Shown: in pieces, positions 6,983 to 29,209 of the stretch
How the letters are laid out: every line of letters begins with the position of its first letter
Position numbering within the stretch: position 1 is the first letter of the stretch
Source of the DNA: an uncultured Gammaproteobacteria bacterium
GTDB lineage: Bacteria; Patescibacteriota; Patescibacteriia; PEXW01
Direction of reading: 5' to 3'
NCBI GenBank assembly: GCA_964486505.1
Contig: CAZAMC010000002.1
Location: 193,656 to 257,655 of the forward strand
Length of the DNA: 64,000 bases
Position numbers and translations under genes: made by a program
Notes under the pieces: model-generated
Databases searched by the model: none
Seen by the model: the letters and a program-made list of their open reading frames with translations, nothing else
What the model was told of the DNA's origin: nothing

Positions 6983-9340
6983 ATGCGCACTCGTACGCTG
7001 AACCTATCGTTTGCCACCGCCATTACTCTGGCGGCGTTTTTGTTTCTTCCGAACGTGTCGCATGCCGTGTATGGCAGCGTGAGCACCTTCTTGGGGAAAA
7101 TCTACGCGGGTGATAGTGGTACTCGCACCGAAGCGCTCCTGGATTTTCCCGAAGATGTAGAAGTGACCAGTGATGGAACGTTCTACATTGCCGACACCTA
7201 CAACAATGTGATTCGCAAAGTGTCGCCTGCCGGCACAGTCTCCACGTACGCTGGAACAGGTGAGTACGGGAATAAGGATGGCACCGCTACCACGGCAACT
7301 TTCGCCTTGCCGCGGGGCCTTGCATTTGATGGCAGCGGGAACTTATACGTTGCTGACTCGGCGAATAACCGAATTAGAAAAATTAGCCCAAGCGGTGCGG
7401 TGTCCACGTTGGTGCGCACCGGCCTCGCCAACCCCCAAGGCGTTGTCGTGAATGGTTCAACTCTCTACATTGCCGATACCGACGGCAATGCCATTCGGAA
7501 GGTTCCAACTGCGGGCGGCAAGCTGGTAACCGTCTCTACCCAAGTGAAGAAGCCGAAGAAGATTACGCTTACTGCGGCAGGGAACCTGTACGTCGCGGAT
7601 AGTGGCACCTACCGGGTGCTGGAGGTGAACGTCAATACGGGCGTGGCCTCTGTCATTGCCGGTTCGGGCTCGGCCGGTTACTGGGAGGGTGTGGGGAGTG
7701 AAGCGCTCTTCCGCAATGTGTACGGCGTTACACGGGATGGCGATACGCTGTACGTGTCGGATGGTGACGGGCTAACCGACTACGTGCGTGCTATCAACCT
7801 CGTTACCCACGAGACGCGACTGGTTGCCCAGGATTCTCGCATGCTCGAAGTGAACGTGCCGTGTGGCCTGCGCGTGTTCAATGGTCAGGTATACGTGGCG
7901 AATGCTGGAATCAGCACAATTCATCGGTTCAACCCGAGTAACGAACTGGATAAGGAGCAGTACATTGGCTCCACGCGGTTTGGGGACGTAAACGGCGTAG
8001 CGGCGAACGTCTTGCTCGGTCGGCCCTCGGCCATGGCGATAACCGCCGATGGCGCCACCATGTACACTATTGTGAATAACCACATCCGGCGTATTACGTT
8101 GGCCACGGGGGCAACGGAGACGATTATTGGTGACATCATTGATGGGTATGGTGAAGGTCCGGCCGACCAAGCATCACCGCGCGTGCGCTTCAGTTCGCCC
8201 GCGTCCCTGGTTTTGAGCCCCGATGGAACAGCGCTCTACGTGGCGGACCGGTGGAACAACCGCATTCGCAAAGTGGATCTTACGGTAACGCCGGTGGTCG
8301 CTTCGCTCATTTCAGGTTCGGGCATCACAAATGCAACCGGCGCCATGAACAACGGCTACCAGGAAGGGGCGCAGTGCGTCACCGAATCGTTGGCCCAGGC
8401 CGGGTGTGCGTACTTCCGGGGGCCGCAGGGGATTGCAGTTTCACCCGACGGCGCCACACTGTACGTGGCTGACTCAGGGAACAACCGCATCCGGAGCGTT
8501 CGCGTCAGTGATGGCGTTACCTCGCTTATCGCTGGCTCCTCCGCTGGCTTTGCCGACGGCACCGGGAGTGCAGCGAAGTTCCGAGCACCCTCTCGGCTCG
8601 CACTTTCGCTGGATGGCGCCACGTTGTACGTGGCTGACACGGGTAACCATCGCATTCGGGCAATCACCCTGGAAACGGGGAAGGTTGCAACCCTTGCGGG
8701 CAGCAAGCAAGGCCATGAAGAAGGCCAAGGCATTTTTGCGGCCTTGTCGCTCCCCGTGGGTCTGGCCATGGGGCCCGGCAATCAGCTGTACATTTCCAGT
8801 GTGGGTTCAAATCGGGTAACCGTGGTAAACACGAAGACGGGTTTGATGACGCTGGTATCGGGCTCGGCAGAGCGTGGGTACCGCAACGGCACGTGGTTGC
8901 AGGCCCGCTTCAATTCCTTGGCTAGCTTGGCGCTCACGCCCGATGGCACTGCGCTGTACGTGGCCGATAGTTGGAACGACATCATCCGGAAGGTGGACGT
9001 GGTGGGTGGGCCGAAGTTTAGCCAAGCCGCCCCTGTGTACAGCCGTTTCTTGGTGGCCAAGTTGAAGCAGGCCAAGACATCAACCCAGACAGCATACCTT
9101 GACATCTTCGGTAAAAATTTCCGCAATGGTGTGCAGGTACAAATTGGTTCGTACAAGCTCAAGACTTTCAAGAAGTCTGGGACCAACATCAACATGCTCA
9201 TCCCATGGGGGAAGATGAAGCCCGGTTACTACGACGTGAAGATTACGAACCGCGATACGCAGTTCACCATTAAGCGGGGGGCTTTTGCCATCACTGACAG
9301 TAAGGGGAATATTCCCAAGACGTACTACCGCATTCGATAA
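6983..9340 (+). CDS. secreted NHL-repeat protein with C-terminal Ig-like domain
   Basis: Signal peptide (MRTRTLNLSFATAITLAAFLFLPNVSHA). At least six NHL-type repeats (YVADSANNRIRKI, YIADTYNNVIRKV, YVADRWNNRIRKV, YVADSGNNRIRSV, YVADTGNHRIRAI, YVADSWNDIIRKV). ATG at 6983 is chosen over the upstream in-frame ORF start. Confidence 0.75.
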   Translation: MRTRTLNLSFATAITLAAFLFLPNVSHAVYGSVSTFLGKIYAGDSGTRTEALLDFPEDVEVTSDGTFYIADTYNNVIRKVSPAGTVSTYAGTGEYGNKDGTATTATFALPRGLAFDGSGNLYVADSANNRIRKISPSGAVSTLVRTGLANPQGVVVNGSTLYIADTDGNAIRKVPTAGGKLVTVSTQVKKPKKITLTAAGNLYVADSGTYRVLEVNVNTGVASVIAGSGSAGYWEGVGSEALFRNVYGVTRDGDTLYVSDGDGLTDYVRAINLVTHETRLVAQDSRMLEVNVPCGLRVFNGQVYVANAGISTIHRFNPSNELDKEQYIGSTRFGDVNGVAANVLLGRPSAMAITADGATMYTIVNNHIRRITLATGATETIIGDIIDGYGEGPADQASPRVRFSSPASLVLSPDGTALYVADRWNNRIRKVDLTVTPVVASLISGSGITNATGAMNNGYQEGAQCVTESLAQAGCAYFRGPQGIAVSPDGATLYVADSGNNRIRSVRVSDGVTSLIAGSSAGFADGTGSAAKFRAPSRLALSLDGATLYVADTGNHRIRAITLETGKVATLAGSKQGHEEGQGIFAALSLPVGLAMGPGNQLYISSVGSNRVTVVNTKTGLMTLVSGSAERGYRNGTWLQARFNSLASLALTPDGTALYVADSWNDIIRKVDVVGGPKFSQAAPVYSRFLVAKLKQAKTSTQTAYLDIFGKNFRNGVQVQIGSYKLKTFKKSGTNINMLIPWGKMKPGYYDVKITNRDTQFTIKRGAFAITDSKGNIPKTYYRIR

Positions 9341-9355
9341 CGATGCAACACAAAG

Positions 9356-9379
9356 GCCCCTCACTATAGAGGGGCTTTT
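9356..9379 (+). terminator. intrinsic terminator of the NHL-repeat gene
   Basis: GCCCCTC-ACTATA-GAGGGGC hairpin followed by TTTT, 16 nt after the stop. Confidence 0.55.
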
Positions 9380-9380
9380 G

Positions 9381-9401
9381 TGGCGGACCCGAAGGGAATC
9401 G
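9381..9401 (-). repeat. 21-nt direct copy of the 3' end of tRNA-Asp (with a degenerate T-arm remnant up to about 9450)
   Basis: tggcggacccgaagggaatcg at 9381-9401 is identical to 9491-9511. Adjacent sequence retains GGCCGATTCCCTTC in place of GGTTCGATTCCCTTC. Confidence 0.5.
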
Positions 9402-9490
9402 GCCTCCGGCCCGGCTTGCTCTCGATGGGTCGCAAGCTTCGATTCCCTTCAGACAAACGACCAGTCAGCACGGTGTGCTGCCTGTTCGTC

Positions 9491-9566
9491 TGGCGGACCC
9501 GAAGGGAATCGAACCCTCGGTCTCCTCCGTGACAGGGAGGCGTGTTAACCGCTACACTACGGGTCC
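9491..9566 (-). tRNA. tRNA-Asp (anticodon GTC), CCA encoded
   Basis: Cloverleaf on minus strand: GGACCCG/TA/GTGT-AGCGGTTA-ACAC/G/CCTCC-CTGTCAC-GGAGG/AGACC/GAGGG-TTCGATT-CCCTT/CGGGTCC/G/CCA. Confidence 0.85.
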
Positions 9567-9631
9567 AATACTAGCTGGCCGATTGTAACACGCGGTTCGC
9601 CGTCTGCCAATACCCACGGTATACTTCACCA

Positions 9632-9985
9632 ATGCAACATATCAAGAGCGCTCACGCTCCATGGACACGCAAGCCAGGCTATAGCAAGAAAGTTCTCGCG
9701 ACCCCAGAAACGCTCAAAAAGCCAGGCCTCCTCGTGCAGGAGTTGGAGATTGCCCCAGGGCAAGTAGCTGAAAGCCACTACCACAAGCAGCAAGTGGAGA
9801 TTTTCTACTTTCTCAATACCGTTGGGGAATTTTGGGTGAATGGTGAACGGGTTCCACTTGCAGCGGGGGATATTCTCATGGTTGAACCCCATGACAAACA
9901 CGAAGTTCGCAACACAAGCACCAAGCCGTTTCGGTACGTGGCATTCAAGTACAATTGGATTGAAGACGATTACTTTGAGGATTAG
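9632..9985 (+). CDS. cupin-domain protein
   Basis: 117 aa with cupin-2-like motif pattern (ESHYHKQQVEIFYFLNTVGEFWVNGE...AAGDILMVEPHDKHEVRN). Confidence 0.65.
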   Translation: MQHIKSAHAPWTRKPGYSKKVLATPETLKKPGLLVQELEIAPGQVAESHYHKQQVEIFYFLNTVGEFWVNGERVPLAAGDILMVEPHDKHEVRNTSTKPFRYVAFKYNWIEDDYFED

Positions 9986-11590
9986 CTATTCTGCCTGCAT
10001 GAGCCGGAAGTCGGGTGATGTGAGCAGCACGGTGCCAGGAATAGGCTCCATATCACGCTGCAGTTTTTCCAGCACCCACGACCCCGCAGTTATGGCCTCG
10101 GGCATTTTTTCCAGGCGAGTTTGCGCTTCGTTTCCCAGGTAGAACACCACTGTTGGTTCGTGATCGAGTAGGATGTTCTTGAGGTAGAGAACCTCGGGTT
10201 TTTCTCGCTGCAGCATTGCGCGCGCCTCAGGCAGGAGTGGCTCGCTGCGGTTTAGCCGAAGTTCTGCGCGTTGGCCGCCCACGGCCACCAGGCTGGCCCA
10301 GGCAACGAACGCAATGAGCCCGCCGCGCCAGACCCAGGGTCGCGTTCTTGCCCACCAGGCTACGCCCAGTACCAGTGCGAAGGCTAAGAGCGCCGTCCCG
10401 AACTTGCCGCCCGCAGTCCCCAGTCCGGCGGCGTAGTGCGCCGGATTGAGCCACCGCAATGCGCTGTCGTCAGGAATGACTGTGGGCAGGCGGCGGACAA
10501 AAACGAAGACTGCCCAGCCTAGTAGTAGCGTTGGCCAGAGCCGTGGTGCGCCGCGGAACATGCGCGGCAGCCAGAGCCCGATAATGAGTGCCACAATTGG
10601 GTACAGCGGCAAGAGGTACCAGTCGGTTTTACTTGCCGTAATCGACAGCGCGCCAGCCGTAATGAGAATGAAGAGCAAGAGTAAAGAGAGTACATCGTCG
10701 CGCTTCCGGATTGCCCGAACCGCCGCCCACCCCAGCGCGGGCAGGCCAAAGGCGAGAAGTGGGAATGCGCGCTTCCAGGCCACGCTCCAGTACCACCCTG
10801 GGCCGGCTTGGAAGCCGTAGAGGTTTTCCGTGGTGCGCGTGGCAATGTCTTCGCCAAAGTACTCGGCCACAAATGCCCCGCCGCGCAGGATGAGCTGGCT
10901 ACCGATCCACGGGAGAACGACCAGGGCGCCGAGACCCAGGGCTTGCCACCAGACGCGGGCCGGGTAAAACCGGAATCGGCGAGTGAGCGCGAGGTGGAGC
11001 AGAATGGTGATGCCTGCAAATCCCGCCGCCGTAAATTTCGTCAGGAAGGTTAAGCCCAATGCGACGGCGGTGAGTAAAAGCCAGCGGGGTTTCGCCCAGC
11101 TGCGCCAGTATGACCACAGCGCGAGCACCGTGAAGAACGTAAGTAGCCCATCAGTTTCACCCGTGCGGAAGGCGTGGTAGAAGAGGTACTTGCCACTCAG
11201 GAAGGCCAGCGGCGCTGCCCAGAGCGGCCAGGTTTTCTTCGTGGCTTGCCACGCCCACCAGCCCAAAAGCAGTGTTGTGCCCACGCCCGCCAGCGCAGAC
11301 CAGAAGCGAATAGTGAATTCCGACTCGCCGAAGAGCATAACCACCGGTGCACTCATCCAGAAGCGGAGTGGGGGTTTGCGGTAGTAGGGTTCGTTATTCC
11401 ACGTGAGTTCCAGCCAGTTACCGGATTTCACCATCTCGTGCGTCACCTGAGCATGGATTGCCTCGTCCCACTTTTCCAGCGGGTTGGCCCCCAGGCGACA
11501 GAAGAATACAACCCCGGCCAGGATGGTAATCGCGGTTAGGGAAATCCACGTTGAGCGGGGGAGTTGCATAGCAGCATTGTAGCATCGCAT
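9986..11590 (-). CDS. GT39-family (ArnT/PMT-like) polytopic glycosyltransferase
   Basis: Multi-TM protein with the N-terminal loop motif of dolichyl/undecaprenyl-phosphate sugar transferases (GANPLEKWDEAIHAQV...YYRKPPLRFW). An alternative ATG lies 21 nt in. Its stop abuts the cupin gene stop. Confidence 0.65.
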   Translation of the reverse strand: MRCYNAAMQLPRSTWISLTAITILAGVVFFCRLGANPLEKWDEAIHAQVTHEMVKSGNWLELTWNNEPYYRKPPLRFWMSAPVVMLFGESEFTIRFWSALAGVGTTLLLGWWAWQATKKTWPLWAAPLAFLSGKYLFYHAFRTGETDGLLTFFTVLALWSYWRSWAKPRWLLLTAVALGLTFLTKFTAAGFAGITILLHLALTRRFRFYPARVWWQALGLGALVVLPWIGSQLILRGGAFVAEYFGEDIATRTTENLYGFQAGPGWYWSVAWKRAFPLLAFGLPALGWAAVRAIRKRDDVLSLLLLFILITAGALSITASKTDWYLLPLYPIVALIIGLWLPRMFRGAPRLWPTLLLGWAVFVFVRRLPTVIPDDSALRWLNPAHYAAGLGTAGGKFGTALLAFALVLGVAWWARTRPWVWRGGLIAFVAWASLVAVGGQRAELRLNRSEPLLPEARAMLQREKPEVLYLKNILLDHEPTVVFYLGNEAQTRLEKMPEAITAGSWVLEKLQRDMEPIPGTVLLTSPDFRLMQAE

Positions 11591-11640
11591 AGAACAAAAA
11601 CACCCCGCTACACGGGGTGACGTGAGGAAACCGCTGACTC

Positions 11641-11982
11641 TTACTTCACCTGGTCAACAATCGCCTTGAACGCTTCGGGGTGGAATTCGGCGAGCAGGGC
11701 CAGAATTTTCCGGTCAACTTCTACCTTCTTCACCTTCAGGGCGTGCATGAAAGTGGAGTAGGTCATGCCGTTTAAGCGGGCGGCGGCATTGATTTTAATC
11801 TGCCACAAGCCGCGGGCGTCGCGTTTCTTCAAACGACGGTGGATGTAGGCGTAGCGGCCGGCTTTGCGGACGGCTACCTTCGCCAGCTTCACGCTCGACT
11901 TCCGCTTCCAACGAAAACCCTTCGCTCGGGAGAGCAGGCTCTTGCGGTGCTTAATGTGGCTGGTGCCGCGCTTTACTCGCAT
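11641..11982 (-). CDS. rplT: 50S ribosomal protein L20
   Basis: MRVKRGTSHIKHRK...AAARLNGMTYSTFMHALK is a canonical L20 sequence. Confidence 0.9.
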   Translation of the reverse strand: MRVKRGTSHIKHRKSLLSRAKGFRWKRKSSVKLAKVAVRKAGRYAYIHRRLKKRDARGLWQIKINAAARLNGMTYSTFMHALKVKKVEVDRKILALLAEFHPEAFKAIVDQVK

Positions 11983-11988
11983 AGGGGT

Positions 11989-12186
11989 TTAGGCGTGGGG
12001 GGTGAGCTCGCGGATGGCGCGGAGGTTCGTCTTGTGCGCAGCCTTATCCCGCCGTTTTCCACGGGTAATGTTGCCCGATTCACGGGCGTTAAAGTGATCC
12101 TGCCCAGCGGCGCGCCGGAGGATCTTGCCGTTGCCACTGCGCCGAAAGCGCTTGGCTGTCGCCTTGTGAGTCTTCAATTTCGGCAT
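11989..12186 (-). CDS. rpmI: 50S ribosomal protein L35
   Basis: MPKLKTHKATAKRFRRSGNGKILRR is a canonical L35 sequence. Confidence 0.9.
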   Translation of the reverse strand: MPKLKTHKATAKRFRRSGNGKILRRAAGQDHFNARESGNITRGKRRDKAAHKTNLRAIRELTPHA

Positions 12187-12219
12187 AGGTTTGGAATCTA
12201 CCTTTATTCTTGGCCTGCG

Positions 12220-12735
12220 TCAAGCCTTCTTCTTGCGGACCAGCATCGTTAGCCGGCCACCCAGAGCACTGGCCGGGGAATCCACGACCACATTTTCCCC
12301 CAGGCTGGTGACAAAATCCATCATAATTTTTCGGGCTAGGTCCATACGGGCACGTTCCCGGCCGCGGAGGATCATCTCCAGCTTCACCCGGTCGCCCTGT
12401 TCGAAGAACTTCATGGTTTGGTCCCGTCGCATGCCCAGGTCGTGGGCGCCGATTTTCAGGGATAAGCGAATACCTTTAATTTCCGAAACCTTCATCTTCG
12501 CCTTCTGTTTACGCTCCGCCTTCTCCTGCTGGTAGAGGTACGACCCCCAGTCAATGATCTTGCAGATGGGGGGCGTGGCCCGCGGGTTCACTTCTACGAG
12601 ATCGAGCTCTTGGTCTTTGGCTAGCTGAAGAGCCCGTTCGGTAGGCATTTGGCCCAGGAACTTGCCATCCGCATCAATGACCTGCACTTCCGGAAGTCGT
12701 ATCTGGAAGTTGATGCGGAAACGTTTGGTACTTAT
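12220..12735 (-). CDS. infC: translation initiation factor IF-3, predicted non-canonical AUA start
   Basis: IF-3 core (EVQVIDADGKFLGQMPTERALQLAKDQELDLVEV...). The in-frame upstream extension reads STKRFRINFQIRLPEVQVID, matching the conserved IF-3 N-terminus. It starts at ATA (12733-12735) five codons after an in-frame TAA, with no ATG/GTG available upstream of the ORF-track GTG. Confidence 0.75.
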   Translation of the reverse strand: MSTKRFRINFQIRLPEVQVIDADGKFLGQMPTERALQLAKDQELDLVEVNPRATPPICKIIDWGSYLYQQEKAERKQKAKMKVSEIKGIRLSLKIGAHDLGMRRDQTMKFFEQGDRVKLEMILRGRERARMDLARKIMMDFVTSLGENVVVDSPASALGGRLTMLVRKKKA

Positions 12736-12811: not shown

Positions 12812-12837
12812 AAAAACCCGTCAGCGACGGGTTTTTG
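12812..12837. terminator. bidirectional intrinsic terminator (A5-CCCGTC-AGC-GACGGG-T5) between tmRNA 3' end and infC
   Basis: Perfect 6-bp GC-rich stem flanked by A-run and T-run. Confidence 0.55.
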
Positions 12838-12838
12838 G

Positions 12839-13241
12839 GTGGAGATGAGGGGTCTTGCACCCCTGTCTAGAATGCGGCAGGCCGGTGGTCTACAGGTGTA
12901 GGGCGTTCACGGGTGTTTCGATCTGGTCGCATGGAGCGCCCAAGCCCGACCAGGTCTAGTGGAAGTGAATTTCGGTTGCGCTGTTACCACCCCGACGCAG
13001 CCTACGCCTGGAATATAACACTCGCGATTCCCGCGCCAGGTCACGGGGCGAATGGGCTATCGGTTTTTAGGCGAGAGCCGGAGCAAAGCTGGGCATTGCG
13101 AACGCGTTAGCGAACGCAGTCTTCACTTTGCTGACAATGCTATTGGCAGTTGTCAATTTGTCCAGCAGTTTTACGCCGTGCTGAACGCGGGCGACCCGCA
13201 CACCAACCGTAATGCACTCTATCAACTTCTGGACATCCCCG
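12839..13241 (-). ncRNA. ssrA: tmRNA (SsrA), about 403 nt
   Basis: Directly downstream of smpB on the same strand. The 5' end GGGGATG pairs with the 3' CATCTCC including a G3:U70 wobble, the AlaRS identity element, followed by discriminator A and CC. A T-arm-like GGGG-TGCAAGA-CCCC precedes the acceptor. An internal tag reading frame ends ...GCT AAC GCG TTC GCA ATG CCC AGC TTT GCT CCG GCT CTC GCC TAA (ANAFAMPSFAPALA*) at 13068-13112. Confidence 0.7.
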
Positions 13242-17191: not shown

Positions 17192-17935
17192 TTACTGTAC
17201 GTCCACTGGAATGTAGGGCGGCACTTCGAGGTACCGGTTGAAGAGGCCGATATCCCGATCGCGGAAGAGCTTGGGGATCATGTCGTCTGGTTTCCACGTG
17301 GCGATCATGTGCTCGACATCGTCGGTCGTCTGGTACTTCCCATCCTCTTGGGCGTAGGTTTGCCCTTCCAAAGGGTCGACTTGGTAGAAGATGAGTTGCG
17401 CCACGCGCATGCCCGCGGGGAGGACAACGGAAAGTTCCTTCATGTGGTTGGTCATTTCCATAGTCCACCGGTTGATGTAGCCCAGGTCACCCCAGCCGGC
17501 GCACTTACACACCGTAATGCCGATGCGACCCATGGAACTGCGCGCGCGCATTTCCGTGGACACGCAGTTGCGGCCGCCGATGAACTCCAGGGTGTGGGCG
17601 AGAATGGTTTCGCCCGGCCCAATGACAATGATTCGGTCATCCGGATGAATGTGTTCCAGCCGACCGTTATCCACCATCCAGTCGCCAGCCCGCACGGCAG
17701 TTTGGGGATCGCCCCAGTACTTCCGGACCGACGTTTCGCTGAACGGTTCCAGCAGGGCGCGGGTACCTTTGAACTCGCGTTCGCGGTAGAAGTGCGTACC
17801 AAGCCGGCAGTCGTAGGAGGTGGTATTCAGACTCCGGACTTCGAAGGGGTGAATGATGATGTTCCCTTCGGCCATGTGGCGCCGTACCTGGTCCCGCGTG
17901 AGGAGTGACCGCAGGGGAGCAGTTTTCTCTGACAT
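17192..17935 (-). CDS. dcd: dCTP deaminase/dUTPase-superfamily protein
   Basis: Motifs resembling dCTP deaminase (IIVIGPGETILAHTLEFIGG, CRLGTHFY). It is longer than typical Dcd, so the assignment is to the superfamily only. Confidence 0.55.
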   Translation of the reverse strand: MSEKTAPLRSLLTRDQVRRHMAEGNIIIHPFEVRSLNTTSYDCRLGTHFYREREFKGTRALLEPFSETSVRKYWGDPQTAVRAGDWMVDNGRLEHIHPDDRIIVIGPGETILAHTLEFIGGRNCVSTEMRARSSMGRIGITVCKCAGWGDLGYINRWTMEMTNHMKELSVVLPAGMRVAQLIFYQVDPLEGQTYAQEDGKYQTTDDVEHMIATWKPDDMIPKLFRDRDIGLFNRYLEVPPYIPVDVQ

Positions 17936-18064
17936 GGTATTCTCCTTTTATTCACGTGCAATTTTCTGTCGGCACCTTAGCGCGCGGTAGGCGTTTGGTC
18001 AATTGCATGTCTTGCCAGCGAACGTCATTTATCGTACACTCACCCCCGCACAGTCATCTTGTCT

Positions 18065-21000
18065 ATGGCGAAGAAACCGCACACTGCGAAGGACGCAACC
18101 GCACCATCGAGCGAACGTCCAGCGACGCCCTTCCCCGCCCTCGAGGAAGCGGTTTTGCAATTGTGGAAAGACGAGAAGGTTTTTCAGAAATCATTACAGC
18201 AGACGAAAGCCGGTACACCATTCGTATTTTTCGAAGGGCCGCCCACGGCGAACGGGAAACCAGGCATCCACCACGTTCTGGCGCGCGCGTACAAAGACGT
18301 CATCGTGCGGTACAAGACGATGCAAGGCTACTTCGTGGAGCGAAAAGCCGGCTGGGACACGCACGGTCTGCCGGTGGAGCTGCAAGTAGAAAAGGCCTTG
18401 AAGATATCGGGGAAGCAGCAAATAGAGAATCTTGTCCCTGGTGATGTGCAGGCGAGCATTGAGAAATTCAATGCCGCGTGCAAGAAGAGCGTCATGGAGT
18501 ACCGGAAAGATTGGGAGCACCTTACCAGCCGAATTGGTTTTTGGCTGGACCTCAAGCATCCGTACATTACCTACGATCCCGAATACATCGAGAGCGTGTG
18601 GTGGGTTTTCCAGCAGGTGTGGGAGAAAGGTTTGGTGTACAAGGGGCACAAGGTGGTGCCCCACTGCCCACGCTGCGAGACCGCCCTCTCCTCGCACGAG
18701 GTGGCCCAAGGCTACAAGAACGTTACGGATACGTCGGTGTACGTTAAGTTCAAGGTAACGCAGAGCACTGTGCCAACGTTGCAGAATCTCTTAAGCAAAG
18801 GTGAAGAGGTCTTCGTGCTCTCGTGGACGACCACGCCGTGGACATTGCCGGGTAACGTGGCCTTAGCTATTGGCAAAGACATGGCGTATCAATTGGTGAA
18901 GCATGACGGTGCGTACCTCATCCTGGCGAAAGAACGTATGGCGGTTCTGGGTGATGATGCAAAAGTTCTGGAAGATCTTACAGGTGAGCAGCTCATTGGC
19001 ACAGCCTACGAGCCGCTGTTCCCCGGCGCGGTGAAGAAGGGGAACTCTCCCACAGCCTGGACAGTCCTGCCTGCCGATTTCGTGACCACAACGGATGGTA
19101 CGGGGGTGGTGCACACGGCCGTGATGTACGGTGAAGATGACTACAAGCTTGGCGAAGAAGCAGGGTTGCCGAAAGTGCACACTGTGGATCCGACCGGGAA
19201 GTTTTTGCCAAGCGTCGCCAAGTGGGCGGGGAAGTTCGTGAAAGACCCGGGCGTGGAAACGGACATTATCACCGATCTCAAGGAACGGGGGTTGCTGCAC
19301 AAGGTGGAGCAGTTTGCGCACGATTACCCCTTCTGCTGGCGTTGCAGCACCCCTTTGCTCTACTACGCCAAAGATAGCTGGTTCATCCGGATGTCGGACG
19401 TGCGATCGAAGCTCATTGAGAACAACCGAACTATCAACTGGGTGCCCGCGTACCTAAAGGAAGGGCGTTTTGGGGAGTGGCTGAAAGACGTCAAAGATTG
19501 GGCCATCTCCCGGGAGCGCTACTGGGGCACGCCCTTGCCCATCTGGGAATGTGCGCAGTGCAAAGCGCAGAAGGTGGTGGGAAGTTTTGCAGATTTGCAG
19601 CTGCCAGAAAAGCAGGTAGACGTTCTCATGCTGCGTCATGGTTTCTCGAAAAAGAACAAACCCTCGATTATCCAGGGCAATGTTGAAGAGAGCCACCTGC
19701 ACGGCCTGACGCCCGAAGGAGCAGCGCAGGTGAAGAAGACTGCGCAGAAGCTAAAAGGGAAAATTGACGTTATTGTTGCCTCTGATTTTGAACGGACACG
19801 GGAGACCGCGCAGATCGTTAGTGACGTCACGGGTGCGCCAGTCACGTACGACCCAGACTTGCGAGAAATTCAAACGCCCGACTGGGAAGGACAGCTCGTG
19901 GTGGAGGTTCGTAAAAGCCTGCCCGATCCTTTACCCATGAGCCACCACCTTGGTGGGGGCGAGAACTACTATCAGGTTCGTGAGCGGATGCAGCGAGCTG
20001 TGCAACAGGCAATCCGCACGCACGCAGGAAAACGCGTGCTGATTGTCTCGCACGGTGACCCGCTGTGGATTTTGAAGTGGTCGTACTCGAACGTGCCGGA
20101 AAGCCAGTACCCCGAAACACCGTACCCGAAGAAGGGCGAGGCAGAGCATTTACGGGTGCCGTTGCAATTCGATCCGCACCGGCCGTTCATCGACGACGTC
20201 ACGTTGACGTGCGAGAAGTGTGACGGCACTATGCACCGCGTACCCGAGGTGCTGGATGTGTGGTTTGATTCTGGGGCCATGCCGTTTGCCCAGTGGCACT
20301 ACCCGTTTGCGGAGAAAGCCCGGGTAGACGAGGGTACGAATTTTCCGGCGGACTATATTTCCGAAGCAATCGATCAAACCCGCGGGTGGTTCTACACGCT
20401 CCTCGCCATCTCTACCTTGCTCGGCAAAGGGGCACCGTATAAGAACGTCATTTCCCTTGGCCACATCCTGGATGCCAAGGGCCAGAAGATGAGCAAGTCC
20501 AAGGGCAATGTGGTGGTGCCCGCTGACGTCATAAACCGCTACGGTGCCGATGCGCTGCGCCTGCACCTCTTCACCATGAGCCAGGCCGGCGACCCGAAGA
20601 ACTTCGACGTGCAGGGTGTGGACGACGTGGTGAAGAAGACGCTGCTCATTTACTGGAACATCGTAACGTTCTATCAAACCCACGCGGGCGAGCACGTGCA
20701 TGTTGTTCCAGAGAAACCTAGCCACATCATGGACCAGTGGATACTGGCCCGGTTGAGTCAGGTGACCGGTGTGGTAACGGCGAAACTGGATGGATACGAC
20801 CCGACTACGGCAGCGCGCACCTTGCAAGAATTCATCACCGATCTTTCTACCTGGTACGTCCGCCGGAGCCGAGACCGCATGCGGCACGGTAAGCACACCT
20901 CAACCGAAGCAGCCGCTGTGCTCCGGCACGTCATCCGCACCACGGCCGGGCTCCTGGCCCCATTTGCCCCATTCGTCAGCGAACACGTGCACCAGCAACT

Positions 21001-21589
21001 CCGGCACATCGATGAACCCGTGAGCATTCACCTCATGCCCTGGCCAACTGCCGTCGCTGCCGATACCGCGGTCCTGGACGATATGCAGCGGGTACGAGAT
21101 GCAGTAGAACTCGGCCATGCAATTCGGAAGGAACAGAATCTCAAAGTTCGCCAGCCGCTTGCGAGCGTATTCGTTAACCATGAGCTCCAGCCCGACCTCC
21201 AGCAGGTGCTGCGGGAAGAGCTGAACGTAGAGGCGTGCACTGTAGACAAAGCTATGCCCCCCGGGTGGGTAGGCAAGGCCAAAGGCGCGCTCATGGTGGC
21301 GCTCAATACCACCATTGATGAAGATCTTCGTCATAAAGGTTTGGTCCGGGAGCTGGCCCGTCACGTGAACGACTTGCGGAAGGCAGCGGGGCTCACGGTA
21401 AAAGACGTGGTCGACGTGGAATGGATGACCGACGACCCAACGTTGCAGCATGCGTTTACCGAGCACGCCGCTGAGTTGCGCGAATTCACGAAAGCCCGGA
21501 GCATAAAGGCCAGCAGCGTGCTGCAGGTGACCCACAAGAAGGAGCTCATCATCGGCGATGCTCGGGTAACCATTGGCATTACCGCATGA
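18065..21589 (+). CDS. ileS: isoleucine--tRNA ligase carrying an embedded histidine-phosphatase (SixA/PGAM-like) domain
   Basis: HIGH-region PPTANGKPGIHH, KMSKSKGN, the WAISRERYWGTPLP and DVWFDSG motifs, and a long C-terminal anticodon-binding region. About 160 aa between the CxxC...CxxC zinc knuckle halves read LRHGFS...HGLTPEGAAQ...ASDFERTRETAQ...VLIVSHGDPLWIL. Confidence 0.85.
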   Translation: MAKKPHTAKDATAPSSERPATPFPALEEAVLQLWKDEKVFQKSLQQTKAGTPFVFFEGPPTANGKPGIHHVLARAYKDVIVRYKTMQGYFVERKAGWDTHGLPVELQVEKALKISGKQQIENLVPGDVQASIEKFNAACKKSVMEYRKDWEHLTSRIGFWLDLKHPYITYDPEYIESVWWVFQQVWEKGLVYKGHKVVPHCPRCETALSSHEVAQGYKNVTDTSVYVKFKVTQSTVPTLQNLLSKGEEVFVLSWTTTPWTLPGNVALAIGKDMAYQLVKHDGAYLILAKERMAVLGDDAKVLEDLTGEQLIGTAYEPLFPGAVKKGNSPTAWTVLPADFVTTTDGTGVVHTAVMYGEDDYKLGEEAGLPKVHTVDPTGKFLPSVAKWAGKFVKDPGVETDIITDLKERGLLHKVEQFAHDYPFCWRCSTPLLYYAKDSWFIRMSDVRSKLIENNRTINWVPAYLKEGRFGEWLKDVKDWAISRERYWGTPLPIWECAQCKAQKVVGSFADLQLPEKQVDVLMLRHGFSKKNKPSIIQGNVEESHLHGLTPEGAAQVKKTAQKLKGKIDVIVASDFERTRETAQIVSDVTGAPVTYDPDLREIQTPDWEGQLVVEVRKSLPDPLPMSHHLGGGENYYQVRERMQRAVQQAIRTHAGKRVLIVSHGDPLWILKWSYSNVPESQYPETPYPKKGEAEHLRVPLQFDPHRPFIDDVTLTCEKCDGTMHRVPEVLDVWFDSGAMPFAQWHYPFAEKARVDEGTNFPADYISEAIDQTRGWFYTLLAISTLLGKGAPYKNVISLGHILDAKGQKMSKSKGNVVVPADVINRYGADALRLHLFTMSQAGDPKNFDVQGVDDVVKKTLLIYWNIVTFYQTHAGEHVHVVPEKPSHIMDQWILARLSQVTGVVTAKLDGYDPTTAARTLQEFITDLSTWYVRRSRDRMRHGKHTSTEAAAVLRHVIRTTAGLLAPFAPFVSEHVHQQLRHIDEPVSIHLMPWPTAVAADTAVLDDMQRVRDAVELGHAIRKEQNLKVRQPLASVFVNHELQPDLQQVLREELNVEACTVDKAMPPGWVGKAKGALMVALNTTIDEDLRHKGLVRELARHVNDLRKAAGLTVKDVVDVEWMTDDPTLQHAFTEHAAELREFTKARSIKASSVLQVTHKKELIIGDARVTIGITA

Positions 21590-22347
21590 GCCTACACGAC
21601 GTAACGGGCATCGTGCTGCGCCGGCGTGACGTGCGGGAAGACAGTCGACTCTATACCATCTTCACCCACGAGCGCGGGAAGCTGGAGGTTTTTGGTCGTG
21701 GCATCCGAAAAGGCCGGGCGAAATTGGGTGGGCACCTAGAACCGGGTGCCACGGTACGGGTAACGTTGGCCCGTGGAAAAACCGGCGAAACGATTACCGC
21801 CGTCGAACGCAGTCATTACCCCGCGGCCACCATGGCAAACTTGGGGCGCCTTGCCAGCCTGGGATTTTTTCTCAGTTTAGTGGATGCGGTAACAAAACCC
21901 GAGTCGGCTGATCCGGCGTTGGCTTCGTTTGCGCAGGAAGCTATTAGCACCTTGGAACATTTACCGGCTGATCCGGCTGAGCAATCTCGGTTTCGCATGT
22001 GGGTAGCCTGGCGCGTTTTGGATTGCAGCGGCCATAGTCCCGAGCTCACGCACTGTGTACACTGCCGAAAATCATTGGCCGACAACGTGCGCTACTCTGC
22101 CCAGCTCGGCGGCTGGCTGGATGCCTCCTGCTACACTGCCGACGCCAGCGCCCTCGTCGTTGGCCCGGCTGTCCGCGAGGTCGTGCGCCAGTTCGTGCGT
22201 GGTGCCTGGGAGGAGTTACCCGCTATTCCCCCCGAACGTCCAGTCGAAAAGGATGCGGCCGCTGTGACGCGCGCCGCCCTGGATCACGTTCTGGAGCGCC
22301 GCCTACCAGCCGAGCGCTTCGTGCAGTTCACGCGCAGTCTCAGTTGA
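21586..22347 (+). CDS. recO: DNA repair protein RecO
   Basis: N-terminal OB-fold region (GIVLRRRDVREDSRLYTIFT...GKLEVFGRG) and a CxxC zinc motif (CVHCRK). ATGA overlap with the ileS stop. Confidence 0.7.
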   Translation: MSLHDVTGIVLRRRDVREDSRLYTIFTHERGKLEVFGRGIRKGRAKLGGHLEPGATVRVTLARGKTGETITAVERSHYPAATMANLGRLASLGFFLSLVDAVTKPESADPALASFAQEAISTLEHLPADPAEQSRFRMWVAWRVLDCSGHSPELTHCVHCRKSLADNVRYSAQLGGWLDASCYTADASALVVGPAVREVVRQFVRGAWEELPAIPPERPVEKDAAAVTRAALDHVLERRLPAERFVQFTRSLS

Positions 22348-24434
22348 GCAATCGAGCGGCGCAGCGTATACTTGCTAGTACCATGCCGAAAGCAAAAGCC
22401 ACCGATAGCGAGGGGACCCGTCGGGTTCCCGTCCGACGCGTTCGTGGGAAAGAAGCCGAAGCCCTTCCCGAACCAGAACCCAACGAACCGGATACGAAGC
22501 CGGAAGCCGAAACCGTCGAGGTCGAGCCGGCGGGTGAGTCCTTACCGGTGCGTTCCCGGCGCGCAACGCAGAGCTTGCGGGATAACGTCCTCAGCGAAAT
22601 TTACCGCGAAGAAGGGGAGACCCCGACCGATACCGACGTGACACGTATCCAGCGGAAGCAAAAAAAATCCCGTAAACTCCTCATCAGCTTCATCGTGCTG
22701 GGAGTGCTAGCGGTCGCAGCGGCTGCCGGGTATTTCATTTTTAGCCGGCAGAGCCGCTTCAGCGAACAGGTGACACTCACGGCGTCAGCAGCGTCGGAAG
22801 TTGCATCTGGCGATGACCTCACCGTGAGCGTGCAGGTGAAGAACGAAGAAGGTATTGCTCTGCGGAATGCCGAGCTCACCTATACGGCGCCCGAGGGTTT
22901 TACGTTCCGGACGAGTACGCCCTCGCCCTCGAATGAGTTTAACAATGCGTGGGGCCTGGGGACGGTTCAGGAACACGGCGGTACGACGGTGAGCATTAGC
23001 GGGCGGCTGCTTGGTGAGCAGAGTCAGGAAAAAGTATTCTCGTTCATGCTCACGTACACGCCCGCGAATTTTAATACTGAGTTCCAAAAATCTGTGGAGG
23101 TGCGGGTGGTCATTAATAAGACCGTCTTGCACATAACGCCCGAAGTGCCTTTGCGCATTCCACCGAAGACCCCCACCGTCATTCCAGTAACTGTGGAGAA
23201 TACGGGGAGTGACAGTCTGGACGCGGTTCGACTGGTGGCCGAGTACCCTGAAGGATTCACCTATAGCAGCGCCGAGCCAAAAGCGTCGGAGAAAGATACG
23301 GTGTGGGACTTGGGTACGCTGAAGGCTGGGCAAAAAGTGACGGTAAAAATTACCGGCGCTCTCGACCAACCAGTTGGGTCGACACCCGAGTTTAAATTCC
23401 GTGCTGGACGGGTGGCTGCTGCTGGCTTCCAGGCGCAGACGGAAGTAAGTGGGATTGGCACGGTGGTGCAGTCTGGAATGGCCCTGAAGGTTGTGGTTAC
23501 CAATCCGGGCAGCGGCGCAGCCATTGGTTGGGGCGAAACGCTCAACTACGTCATTACCTACACCAACGAGAGTGACGCGGAAATGCGTGACGTCAGCATA
23601 ACGATGGAGTTTAGTCAGAAAAACGTTGAGAGCGTTGATGTGGACATTCTGGATTTGGACAACCGCTCAGACTTGAGCAAGGGCAAGCTGGCAGGGCGCA
23701 CCCTTACGTGGACGAAGAAGGAAGTACCGGCGCTCGCCGCTGTTGCTGGCGGAAAGTCGGGTGACCTTTTGCTCCGTATTCCGCTGCGGTCGGGCCCGAA
23801 CATTCGTTCACAAGCCGACCGGAACTTTGCCATTACGAGTGCGGCCCGGCTCACCGTGGGGAGTGTTGATGGCTTAGATCAGAAGAGCATTGAAACCCAA
23901 GCCACACCCGTAACCACGAAAGTGACATCCAAGCTGAATGTGGAACCCGAAGGGCGGTACTACAGCGACGAGCAAATTCCGGTTGGCACGGGCCCGCTCC
24001 CTCCGCAAGTCGGCCAGGCCACCACGTATGAGCTGGGCTGGGTGTTAGCGAATCCGACGAATGAGGTCACCCAAGTTGTTGTGAGTGCTACGCTGCCCGA
24101 TGGTGTAACGTGGGCTGGGAAGCAGTCGGTAACGGCTGGCCAAGCTGTGGCGTACGAGGCGACCACGCGGGAGGTGACCTGGCGTGTGAATCGCGTGCCG
24201 CCGGGTACGGGAACCCTGTTCGCGAGTCTAGAGGCGAAATTCGAGGTGAGCGTTACTCCTACCGCTACGGATCTGGGGAAGCTCCTCATTCTCCTCAACC
24301 AAACGGTGGTGACTGCCCGAGACGAGTTCACGACCCAAGACCTACGGGTGGAGAAGGCCATCATCACCAGTGACTTGCCAAACGACGTTGCCGCGCAGGG
24401 GAAAGGCTTAGTCGTCGCCGCGCCGGCGGTGTAG
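22344..24434 (+). CDS. membrane-anchored surface protein with DUF11-type (conserved repeat domain) repeats
   Basis: Charged disordered N-terminus, one TM helix (LLISFIVLGVLAVAAAAGYFIF), then repeated about 100-aa beta-rich modules (e.g. VENTGSDSLDAVRLVAEYPEGFTYSS...WDLGTLKAGQKVTVKITGAL). 4-nt overlap with recO. Confidence 0.5.
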   Translation: MSNRAAQRILASTMPKAKATDSEGTRRVPVRRVRGKEAEALPEPEPNEPDTKPEAETVEVEPAGESLPVRSRRATQSLRDNVLSEIYREEGETPTDTDVTRIQRKQKKSRKLLISFIVLGVLAVAAAAGYFIFSRQSRFSEQVTLTASAASEVASGDDLTVSVQVKNEEGIALRNAELTYTAPEGFTFRTSTPSPSNEFNNAWGLGTVQEHGGTTVSISGRLLGEQSQEKVFSFMLTYTPANFNTEFQKSVEVRVVINKTVLHITPEVPLRIPPKTPTVIPVTVENTGSDSLDAVRLVAEYPEGFTYSSAEPKASEKDTVWDLGTLKAGQKVTVKITGALDQPVGSTPEFKFRAGRVAAAGFQAQTEVSGIGTVVQSGMALKVVVTNPGSGAAIGWGETLNYVITYTNESDAEMRDVSITMEFSQKNVESVDVDILDLDNRSDLSKGKLAGRTLTWTKKEVPALAAVAGGKSGDLLLRIPLRSGPNIRSQADRNFAITSAARLTVGSVDGLDQKSIETQATPVTTKVTSKLNVEPEGRYYSDEQIPVGTGPLPPQVGQATTYELGWVLANPTNEVTQVVVSATLPDGVTWAGKQSVTAGQAVAYEATTREVTWRVNRVPPGTGTLFASLEAKFEVSVTPTATDLGKLLILLNQTVVTARDEFTTQDLRVEKAIITSDLPNDVAAQGKGLVVAAPAV

Positions 24435-28943: not shown

Positions 28944-29047
28944 CGTCCCACGCCAGCGGAAGAAGAGAAATTTTTACCGAGTACGGTTTTTTTGAGGGAA
29001 ACAAATTCGGTGAAGAGCAGTATTGGAACCGCTGGCCCAAAAATACT

Positions 29048-29125
29048 GCGGCTGTAGCTCAGGGGTAGAGCCTGGGGGATTCTCCATAGCCCTCACTGTC
29101 GGTGGTTCAATTCCATCCAGCCGCA
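29048..29125 (+). tRNA. tRNA-like gene with atypical anticodon arm (identity uncertain; possibly pseudo-tRNA)
   Basis: Normal acceptor stem (GCGGCTG/CAGCCGC), D-arm (GCTC-AGGGGTA-GAGC) and T-arm (GGTGG-TTCAATT-CCATC) with discriminator A. The segment between them is 6 nt longer than canonical. The best fold is an 8-bp anticodon stem with one mismatch and loop TCTCCAT, read as UCC/Gly but with C33. Confidence 0.5.
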
Positions 29126-29135
29126 AAAAATACAC

Positions 29136-29209
29136 CGCAGGGTAGCTTAGAAGGTGCAAAGCGTTGGCTTCATACGCCAAAGACGCTGGTTCAAGTCCAG
29201 TCCCTGCAA
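29136..29209 (+). tRNA. initiator tRNA-fMet (anticodon CAT)
   Basis: C1:A72 mismatch at the top of the acceptor stem. Three consecutive G:C pairs at the bottom of the anticodon stem (TTGGC/GCCAA). Loop TTCATAC, T-loop GGTTCAAGTCC. CCA not encoded. Confidence 0.8.

Follow-up and report, generated by a model that had tools for sequence, protein, structure and literature searches.

Aminoacyl-tRNA synthetases are among the most conserved and best-studied enzymes, and their accessory domains, for editing, tRNA binding or signaling, have each revealed new biology. The closest described relatives of the protein reported here are the type-2 isoleucyl-tRNA synthetases (IleRS), the eukaryote-like, mupirocin-resistant type, of which Priestia megaterium IleRS2 (8C8V/8C8W) and Thermus thermophilus IleRS (1ILE) have been solved. 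Solved IleRS have about 25-45 residues between the two CxxC pairs of the zinc knuckle considered below. We analyzed a stretch of 64,000 nucleotides from contig CAZAMC010000002.1 of the Patescibacteria assembly GCA_964486505.1 (positions 193,656 to 257,655, forward strand), called the window throughout, in which the isoleucyl-tRNA synthetase gene, ileS, encodes 216 residues at this place, with a complete second enzyme, a predicted histidine phosphatase, among them. In every other respect compared, i.e. domain order, HIGH-type and KMSKS motifs, the connective peptide 1 (CP1) editing domain, both Cys4 clusters and the C-terminal DUF5915 domain, the window protein matches the solved type-2 enzymes, and its structure model superposes on them with template modeling (TM) scores of 0.83-0.91, normalized to the target.

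The inserted domain has its own described relatives, the small branch-1 phosphatases PhoE/YhfR (1EBB, 1H2E), GpgP (4PZ9), the PspA type (4IJ5), CobC (6E4B) and Rv3214 (2A6P). It has their fold (TM 0.72-0.82), the same catalytic residues and a similar size with a short cap segment, at 20-30% identity. These relatives are free-standing metabolite phosphatases of ~200 residues, whereas the insert was seen only in or beside IleRS or valyl-tRNA synthetase (ValRS), and it has a motif of its own, SHGDPLW, unlike the PhoE/GpgP/PspA/CobC-type phosphatases.

Two known architectures resemble the combination. The IleRS with a GNAT domain (NF040702, 'ileS_w_GNAT') is likewise a curated IleRS with an extra enzyme domain inside its polypeptide; the extra domain belongs to a different enzyme class, and the window protein scores 313 bits against a cutoff of 1999. 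Ordinary IleRS align to positions about 17-290 and about 450-1055 of NF040702, so the GNAT domain apparently lies in the CP1 region and not in the knuckle. IleRS may thus be a recurrent host for nested enzymes. The second architecture, the mycobacterial RNase H/acid phosphatase RnhC (Rv2228c; NF005567), is the top NCBIfam model for the insert (83 bits, in the phosphatase half; cutoff 326) and provides a precedent for joining a CobC-like histidine phosphatase to a nucleic-acid-handling enzyme, although it is an end-to-end fusion whereas the window phosphatase is a nested insertion. We take the physiological role of the RnhC phosphatase half to be unsettled. Synthetases are known as hosts of nested domains (PMC13114784), but neither the survey that documents this nor a 2026 survey of about 118,000 IleRS sequences mentions a phosphatase in IleRS. 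We found no description of one in the searchable literature including these two surveys, in agreement with a preliminary description of this locus, made from its sequence without database searches, whose author knew of no synthetase-phosphatase fusion of this kind. Taken singly, the type-2 IleRS and the branch-1 histidine phosphatase are both ordinary members of their families; it is for their combination that we found no description.

Results

Host enzyme and position of the insert

The ileS open reading frame (ORF) is unbroken from 18059 to 21589 on the forward strand (as are all features of the gene given below), with 1176 codons from a TTG at 18059 or 1174 from an ATG at 18065. A database protein of 1174 residues, P0121, is 100% identical to the window IleRS and starts at the ATG, and we place the gene at 18065..21589. 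Its product matches the TIGR00392 ileS equivalog with 885.4 bits (cutoff 621.4) in two stretches that break at residues 514/704, and is homologous over its full length to type-2 IleRS structures (E about 1e-235). The Pfam domain tRNA-synt_1 (E=2e-121) also matches in two stretches, one on each side of a match to His_Phos_1.

The HIGH-type class I signature reads GKPGIHH (residues 66-72; 18254..18274), with H69 nearly invariant and H70 invariant in our alignment A1. At the base of the CP1 editing domain, to which the isolated-domain structures 1WK8/1UDZ align at residues 218-424, lie the two halves of a first zinc site, CPRC (18665..18676) and CWRC at the CP1 hinge (19334..19345). The cysteines of both are invariant in A1, and we take CPRC to be a zinc site as in the T. 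thermophilus IleRS structure. The motifs WAISRERYWGTPLP (481-494), ECAQC (497-501) and DVWFDSG (733-739) follow in frame, as does the KMSKS loop of the synthetic site (810-814; 20486..20500; K808/S810/K811 invariant in A1). The anticodon-binding domain PF08264 (Anticodon_1) occupies 20732..21163, and the C-terminal domain (residues 1053-1174; 21215..21580) is of the type-2 kind (PF19302/DUF5915) rather than the type-1 zinc-binding kind; the best structural matches are IleRS2 8C8V/8C8W. A full-length AlphaFold2 (AF2) model has a mean predicted local distance difference test score (pLDDT) of 91.1 and a predicted TM score (pTM) of 0.81, with the insert confident too; near the junctions the only weaker 10-residue block is 511-520 (pLDDT 76). 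Superposed on P. megaterium IleRS2 (8c8v), the model gives a target-normalized TM of 0.83. With its signature motifs, editing domain, both Cys clusters, and anticodon and C-terminal domains, the window gene is, as read from its sequence, a complete type-2 IleRS.

Alignments to the solved IleRS 8C8W and 1ILE end at residue 514 and restart at 704, and this break places an extra segment between CAQC (C498, C501; 19550..19561) and CEKC (C718, C721; 20210..20221). By alignment offset to 1ILE, C498/C501 fall on T. thermophilus Cys461/Cys464, which we take to be part of one of that enzyme's two Cys4 zinc sites. The preliminary description had read ECAQC and CEKC as the two halves of the IleRS knuckle with a domain inserted in frame between them, and the structural alignments and the four retained cysteines bear this out. 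Its further suggestion, that the insert replaces the short zinc-binding peptide, has to be given up; the knuckle is retained, and its four cysteines are 98-99% conserved among 81 full-length insert-bearing proteins (C498 99%, C501 98%, CEKC 99%). It had also placed the element at 19620-20105, which is the right location, although the inserted DNA is slightly wider. Alignment with L001, a syntenic locus of 75-85% DNA identity that holds the closest insert-less ortholog, delimits a cassette of 555 nt (185 codons) at 19611..20165. The ortholog has 31 residues between the CxxC pairs where the window IleRS has 216, and base composition shows no break across the insert.

The inserted phosphatase and its catalytic residues

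The Pfam family PF00300 (His_Phos_1) matches residues 523-688 (19625..20122) with E=1.9e-34 and 119.5 bits (cutoff 21.7), covering model positions 2-170 of 194. An embedded branch-1 histidine phosphatase, as proposed in the preliminary description, is thus recovered together with its host, His_Phos_1 and tRNA-synt_1 both matching significantly, and every motif quoted there lies in frame at the place given: LRHGFS (525-530), HGLTPEGAAQ (548-557), ASDFERTRETAQ (574-585) and VLIVSHGDPLWIL (660-672). These contain the residues expected to carry out catalysis. R526-H527-G528 (19634..19642) supply the phosphate-binding arginine and the nucleophilic histidine, both kept in 202/202 single knuckle copies. 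R579 (19793..19795), in the motif SDFERTRETA, is the second phosphate-binding arginine and is present in all 366 phosphatase copies examined. The general acid E603 (19865..19867; motif LREI) is Glu in 175/202, the listed exceptions all being Asp, and the second catalytic histidine, H665 (20051..20053), in the SHGDPLW motif typical of the family, is conserved in 201/202. Among the 81 full-length relatives with an insert, R526, H527, R579 and H665 are 100% and E603 98% conserved, and the set is also intact in all 17 full-length-matched copies from hosts with several copies or with copies at other sites. Since all of its catalytic residues are kept, the nested phosphatase is apparently active.

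When the insert was modeled alone, AF2 gave a pLDDT of 91.9 and a pTM of 0.88. The models show an autonomous fold, and the phosphatase occupies a surface loop between the knuckle halves. The closest solved structures found by Foldseek were GpgP Rv2419c (TM 0.80-0.82), the PspA-type phosphoserine phosphatase (0.80) and PhoE (0.76, 30% identity), followed by Rv3214 and CobC. From these matches we assign the insert to the branch-1 histidine phosphatases of the phosphoglycerate mutase (PGAM) superfamily, as a PhoE-like member. The earlier label 'SixA/PGAM-type' is therefore right as to the superfamily and wrong as to SixA: TIGR00249 matches with only 23.2 bits (cutoff 74.5) over model positions 3-68, no SixA appears among the top 50 Foldseek matches, and SixA is a compact fold of ~155 residues without a cap whereas the insert has ~166-185 residues with a cap segment. 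Other named families were rejected in the same way, i.e. cofactor-dependent phosphoglycerate mutase (dPGM; TIGR01258, 21.3 bits against 81.7; the archaeal dPGM model NF038349, 59.6 against 225), the alpha-ribazole phosphatase CobC (TIGR03162, 69.3 against 162.9) and PspA (61 against 350). The dPGM structures gave lower target-normalized TM scores (0.58-0.63) because they are longer.

The insert is under purifying selection at least as strong as that on the IleRS body, because between the window and locus L002 its nonsynonymous divergence (dN) is 0.185 against 0.252 for the body; synonymous sites are saturated in this comparison. Within the clade of the window protein, inserts are 83-85% identical and bodies 76-78%.

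Family size and distribution

Full-length searches recovered dozens of IleRS of 1117-1257 residues with PF00300 from NCBI, JGI, ENA and Logan assemblies, and the named ones come mostly from Patescibacteria (Uhrbacteria, Komeilibacteria, Doudnabacteria, Parcubacteria). The insert is present in 81 of 120 full-length relatives, and the distance between the Cys pairs is bimodal (206-235 residues in 81, 30-47 in the other 39). One relative, P0219 (1257 residues), has about 13 extra residues within the second half of the knuckle (WPCDEPLLNLPLRAGGEKCHG) in addition to the phosphatase. UniProt already holds one member, A0A2M6WD80, named only 'Isoleucine--tRNA ligase', and the NCBI name of insert-bearing IleRS is often 'class I tRNA ligase family protein', a wording of automatic annotation because of which the ileS call can be missed in Patescibacteria.

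We also scanned one genome per GTDB species for the motif [VI]SHGDPLW[ILF] and confirmed loci in at least 199 species. As only this variant of the motif was sampled, 199 is a lower bound, and the ratio of fused to free copies given below is biased. Context and labels were taken from the best 80 of the 199 loci, whose labels are nearly all Patescibacteria/Parcubacteria (Ryan-, Giovannoni-, Sung-, Nealson-, Colwell-, Harrison-, Azam- and Yanofskybacteria, Paceibacterota, Spechtbacterales). Some bins among loci L011-L090 with a typical Patescibacteria IleRS-phosphatase are labeled Gammaproteobacteria, WOR-3, Acutalibacteraceae, Pacearchaeota, Binatia, Baltobacteraceae or Verrucomicrobiae; these are probably mislabeled or contaminated bins and not true hosts. 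The nested phosphatase is no isolated case but one member of a large family in Patescibacteria. Its recurrence in hundreds of independent genomes also upholds the earlier argument that the locus is no assembly chimera.

Gain, loss and exchange of the cassette

A tree built on IleRS columns only interleaves genes with the insert (filled) and without it (empty), and parsimony requires at least 13 changes between the two states. In the clade of the window protein (the query), the filled query groups with the empty P0126 as its sister (bootstrap 99%), and every one of 300 replicates calls for 5 or more state changes among the 15 ingroup genes. At the DNA level, the window and L001 have the order GT4-dcd-ileS-recO in common at 75-85% identity and differ by a precise in-frame 555-nt indel. 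Paralogy was rejected as the source of this pattern, as the loci are syntenic orthologs and the window has a single IleRS-like gene and a single histidine phosphatase. In the argS-ileS interval of L001, the closest empty-allele genome, we found no histidine phosphatase gene, which implies that IleRS works without the phosphatase.

In 6 of the 7 empty alleles of the query clade, a homologous five-residue linker of equal length precedes FDPHRP (ELKVKEG, ELKAKKG, ELGVKKD, ELNVKKS, ELKVDKH), which suggests that these six are copies of one 'empty-site' allele. This shared linker, together with two isolated filled alleles inside empty clades, makes independent random deletions unlikely. P0136 and P0137 carry a query-type cassette (RHGxSxKNxPxxIQG), yet their nearest body relatives (81%) are all empty. 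P0155 and the query are 49% identical in the body and 66% in the insert, and 72 other inserts are at most 40% identical to that of the query.

The clearest exchange is seen between L002 and L003, which come from different samples. Their DNA is 87-100% identical over 7.4 kb and about 50% identical over the ~600 nt of the insert, with a synonymous divergence (dS) of 0.475 in the body and about 2.3 in the insert. We rejected fast evolution as the cause of this difference, because synonymous sites have diverged about five times as much in the insert as in the flanks. The breakpoints of this pair, the only one examined at the DNA level, lie within the conserved IleRS flanks WGTPLPIW...C..C and PHRPYIDD. 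The exact L002 combination is reproduced in L013, a metagenome-assembled genome in GTDB from another assembler; L015, which was misaligned, was left out of this comparison of hosts and inserts. No direct or inverted repeats and no mobile-element signatures were found flanking the insert. The simplest mechanism would be exchange of the cassette by homologous recombination, with conserved IleRS sequence serving as homology arms. Together the comparisons indicate that the phosphatase module is gained, lost, replaced and transferred between lineages as a cassette.

Free-standing copies, further insertion sites and other hosts

In the best 80 GTDB loci the phosphatase is nested in IleRS (IleN-HP-IleC, HP being the histidine phosphatase) in 73 and a free-standing gene of ~190-260 codons in 7. 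Six of the free-standing copies have enough flanking sequence to show their neighbors, and for each of them the next gene downstream on the same strand is an insert-less ileS; in five of these six pairs the stop and start codons overlap (e.g. ATGA) or are at most 3 nt apart. A protein search added three further free copies, each with ileS 0.2-1.7 kb downstream of it. The gene orders are argS-HP-ileS-recO in L010, HP, three small ORFs, ileS and recO in L004, and argS-HP-NUDIX-x-ileS in L006 (Moranbacteria). In all, the closest free-standing homologs adjoin an insert-less ileS in 9/10 informative cases. L008, a free copy on a 5.6-kb contig, has no ileS within 3.5 kb; the contig of L009 stops after argS-HP-NUDIX, before ileS could appear, and that of L077 is too short.

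In the L006 locus (8311-12612; GCA_013336285.1, Moranbacteria), the insert-less ileS, preceded by HP-NUDIX, is followed with a 4-nt overlap by a gene for a 169-residue P-loop kinase of the Zeta_toxin/AAA_33 type, and then by a second NUDIX gene and a second such kinase, so that ileS is surrounded by a phosphatase, NUDIX hydrolases and kinases.

The ileS genes downstream of free phosphatases all score above the ileS equivalog cutoff (684-905 bits). Their N-terminal signatures, GPITANNPMGVHH and GPPFATGKPHYGH, differ from that of the window IleRS, GPPTANGKPGIHH, which marks these hosts as divergent IleRS lineages. Free and nested phosphatases are 54-63% identical, i.e. as close as the nested ones are among themselves, so the fused and split forms appear to interconvert.

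We then searched with the insert alone (phmmer) against 1.84 billion cluster representatives, which gave 541 matches below 1e-10, and classified the best 145 new representatives with local hidden Markov models (HMMs). They comprise 68 single phosphatase proteins, 18 free tandems of two phosphatases and about 60 IleRS-associated sequences, many of them fragments. The free tandem proteins are ~410 residues long (18 representative clusters). Some synthetases carry two modules in the knuckle (P0260, P0267, P0272) or three (P0262), and the RHG motif is present in all modules of the synthetases with 2-4 in tandem (P0264, P0262, P0260, P0267, P0272). Modules also occupy at least two other sites of IleRS (examples are P0269, P0271, P0275, P0293 and P0350). 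A second site follows DxWxESGSMPYA and precedes FPADFI (about query residues 751-763), and a third lies between ...STYA and ...LDQWI at the start of the anticodon-binding domain (about 877-888). These sites were derived from local HMM coordinates and the raw sequences, because MAFFT merged nearby sites. In P0264, a ValRS fragment, there are four modules, of which three occupy the homolog of the IleRS knuckle site. Among the best 145 of the 541 representatives, all hosts were IleRS or ValRS. The SHGDPLW subfamily, as recognized by its motif, is Patescibacteria-wide and was found only with IleRS and once with ValRS.

Genomic neighborhood

Upstream of ileS, at 17192..17935 on the reverse strand, lies an ORF for a dCTP-deaminase-like protein; the syntenic gene of L001 matches PF22769 (DCD). 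Downstream, recO (21586..22347, forward strand; RecO_N/RecO_C on the syntenic genes of L001-L004 and L010) starts within the ileS stop with an overlap of 4 nt, and the gene that follows it (22344-24434, forward strand, 696 residues), whose syntenic homologs have weak matches to CLIPPER/NPCBM_assoc, overlaps recO by 4 nt likewise. These two overlaps suggest that ileS, recO and the surface protein gene form one translationally coupled operon, conserved in L001-L004 and L010. No T-box or other regulatory RNA was found upstream of ileS at the Rfam gathering thresholds.

Elsewhere in the window, a full-length tmRNA lies at 12837-13240 on the reverse strand (Rfam, 81 bits, E=6e-30); it was unreported by ARAGORN, and by synteny with L001 smpB is expected near it. 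Adjoining genes for tRNA-Gly(TCC) and tRNA-Met(CAT) lie at 29047-29126 and 29136-29209 on the forward strand. The tRNA-Gly, of 80 nt, has its anticodon called at position 37 and scores only 46.5 bits in Rfam, so that it may have an unusual 5' part or an insertion.

Discussion

Taken as a whole, the observations are, in our moderately confident view, best explained by a phosphatase that is coupled to IleRS, whether nested or adjacent, in an accessory role. The phosphatase is probably a non-essential accessory of IleRS, tethered to it, that acts alongside it as a phosphomonoesterase via a phospho-His527 intermediate. The several fusion sites, the variable copy number and the translationally coupled split form point to tethering over exact geometry; selection would then have favored nearness to IleRS and production in a 1:1 ratio with it, more than a precise arrangement. 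The module is also dispensable, polymorphic and subject to cassette turnover, which suggests that its role is accessory and depends on the environment.

As to the substrate, we predict, tentatively and by analogy, a phosphate that blocks isoleucylation. The likeliest target would be tRNA-Ile whose A76 bears a 3'(2')-phosphate or pyrophosphate, as a pocket of the small-molecule type would accommodate such a nucleotide-like end; an alternative would be phospho-Ser/Thr on IleRS itself. Such a phosphatase would serve as built-in repair, or as an antidote, against kinase or pyrophosphokinase toxins. It is conceivable, on the analogy described below, that it strips a (pyro)phosphate placed by a toxin from the 3' end of tRNA-Ile (and tRNA-Val) or from the synthetase. 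The toxin might be a toxSAS-like pyrophosphokinase or a Hip/Zeta-like kinase of a phage, of the host or of a competitor, and the gain, loss, amplification and exchange of the cassette would record an arms race that is fought within an essential gene of translation. Both kinds of toxin have described counterparts: toxSAS enzymes pyrophosphorylate the 3'-CCA ends of tRNA and can be tRNA-specific, FaRel2 selecting tRNA-Gly and tRNA-Thr (PMC11559606; bioRxiv 10.1101/2021.04.30.441581), and Hip kinases inactivate aminoacyl-tRNA synthetases by phosphorylation (PMC6581861, PMC8262856). The small alarmone hydrolase antitoxins of toxSAS systems and HipB-type control also undo or prevent phosphorylation that blocks aminoacylation (PMC11782079, PMC11559606, PMC6581861); they belong to unrelated families and act outside the synthetase, so that their likeness to the window module is one of proposed function only.

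Several points weigh against a link to isoleucylation. By sequence and fold comparison, the insert is nearest to phosphatases of metabolites, not to those of RNA or protein. Near ileS, kinase-like genes were seen only in L006 (small proteins of the Zeta_toxin/AAA_33 type), and no search for toxin kinases or toxSAS was made. The adjacency of the free copies could follow from the gene order argS-(x)-ileS-recO, which is conserved in Patescibacteria, and not from function, and as the argS-ileS interval also carries dcd and NUDIX genes, a metabolic role fits equally well. The closest empty-allele genome has no phosphatase gene in that interval, and further hosts may exist beyond the matches listed.

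These points lead to the strongest alternative, which we nevertheless regard as rather unlikely. In it, the module is a housekeeping phosphatase for metabolites or nucleotides (e.g. a nucleotidase, or a sugar-phosphate or phosphoserine phosphatase) that lay ancestrally upstream of ileS, was copied by local rearrangements into permissive ileS loops and was kept there only for its guaranteed expression, with no link to isoleucylation. Its small-molecule relatives, the nucleotide-metabolism genes dcd and NUDIX in the argS-ileS interval, the tendency of streamlined genomes to favor gene fusion, and the tolerance of several sites in surface loops are all as this alternative would have them. However, neutral capture should also strike argS, recO and other neighbors, and the hosts among the best 145 representatives are IleRS and its closest paralog ValRS; the linkage also holds across divergent IleRS lineages. 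Nor should a housekeeping enzyme be present in some and absent from other orthologs that are 76-83% identical, as here, or be replaced by an allele only 34-37% identical, and the empty L001 has no compensating copy in the interval.

An IleRS-coupled accessory phosphatase might also act on a product of the host. It would hydrolyze AMP, pyrophosphate (PPi) or a nucleotide by-product of IleRS, and in cells short of energy this would draw aminoacylation or editing onward. Fusion and translational coupling would both make sense if the phosphatase were tethered to the source of its substrate, PhoE-type enzymes accept nucleotides such as AMP, and the substrate of CobC is a nucleotide analog. We consider this improbable all the same, since all aminoacyl-tRNA synthetases make AMP and PPi yet the hosts are only IleRS and ValRS, and destruction of AMP would be costly for organisms that salvage nucleotides. 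We know of no pyrophosphatase activity in this branch of the histidine phosphatases, and a kinetic helper would hardly be expected to show presence/absence polymorphism and cassette swaps.

Dimers are common among histidine phosphatases, and the free tandems and tandem inserts could mimic a dimer; moreover, the domain lies in a connective-peptide region of the catalytic core. The module might accordingly be non-catalytic, serving for structure, dimerization or allosteric ligand sensing with a phosphate pocket that binds without turnover. This is very improbable given the conservation of the full catalytic set, general acid included, in about 200 copies; modules that only bind usually lose the nucleophile or the acid, and the several insertion sites speak against precise allosteric coupling.

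An artefact or a selfish element (an assembly chimera, a pseudogenizing insertion, or an intein- or transposon-like parasite of ileS) is scarcely credible, even though patchy presence at a single conserved position in an essential gene is reminiscent of intein or homing behavior, because hundreds of independent assemblies have this architecture and two assemblers yielded one combination alike, the frame is intact and under purifying selection, the whole insert is histidine-phosphatase fold with no room for a splicing or endonuclease domain, and its boundaries (...ADLQLPEKQVDV... and ...HLRVPLQ|FDPHRP) have no Cys/Ser...His-Asn splice motif or other splicing blocks, flanking repeats or compositional break, with no Hint fold and no Pfam intein family detected.

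A second enzyme, of an unrelated class and, by its conserved residues, catalytically intact, is nested in the catalytic core of IleRS, and the module occurs in some 200 species or more of a major bacterial radiation that is uncultured. The occurrence of fused and split forms, i.e. a Rosetta-stone pattern, predicts a partnership between phosphatase and isoleucylation for which there is at present no biochemical rationale. If the repair or antidote role is true, it would reveal a new layer of conflict around tRNA charging, and IleRS would become the first known case of an aminoacyl-tRNA synthetase with an antidote domain of its own. If instead the role is metabolic, the family would illustrate the way in which unrelated enzymes are packed into essential genes in the streamlined genomes of epibionts. 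In either case the locus offers a clean natural instance of domain-level allelic polymorphism and cassette exchange in an essential gene.

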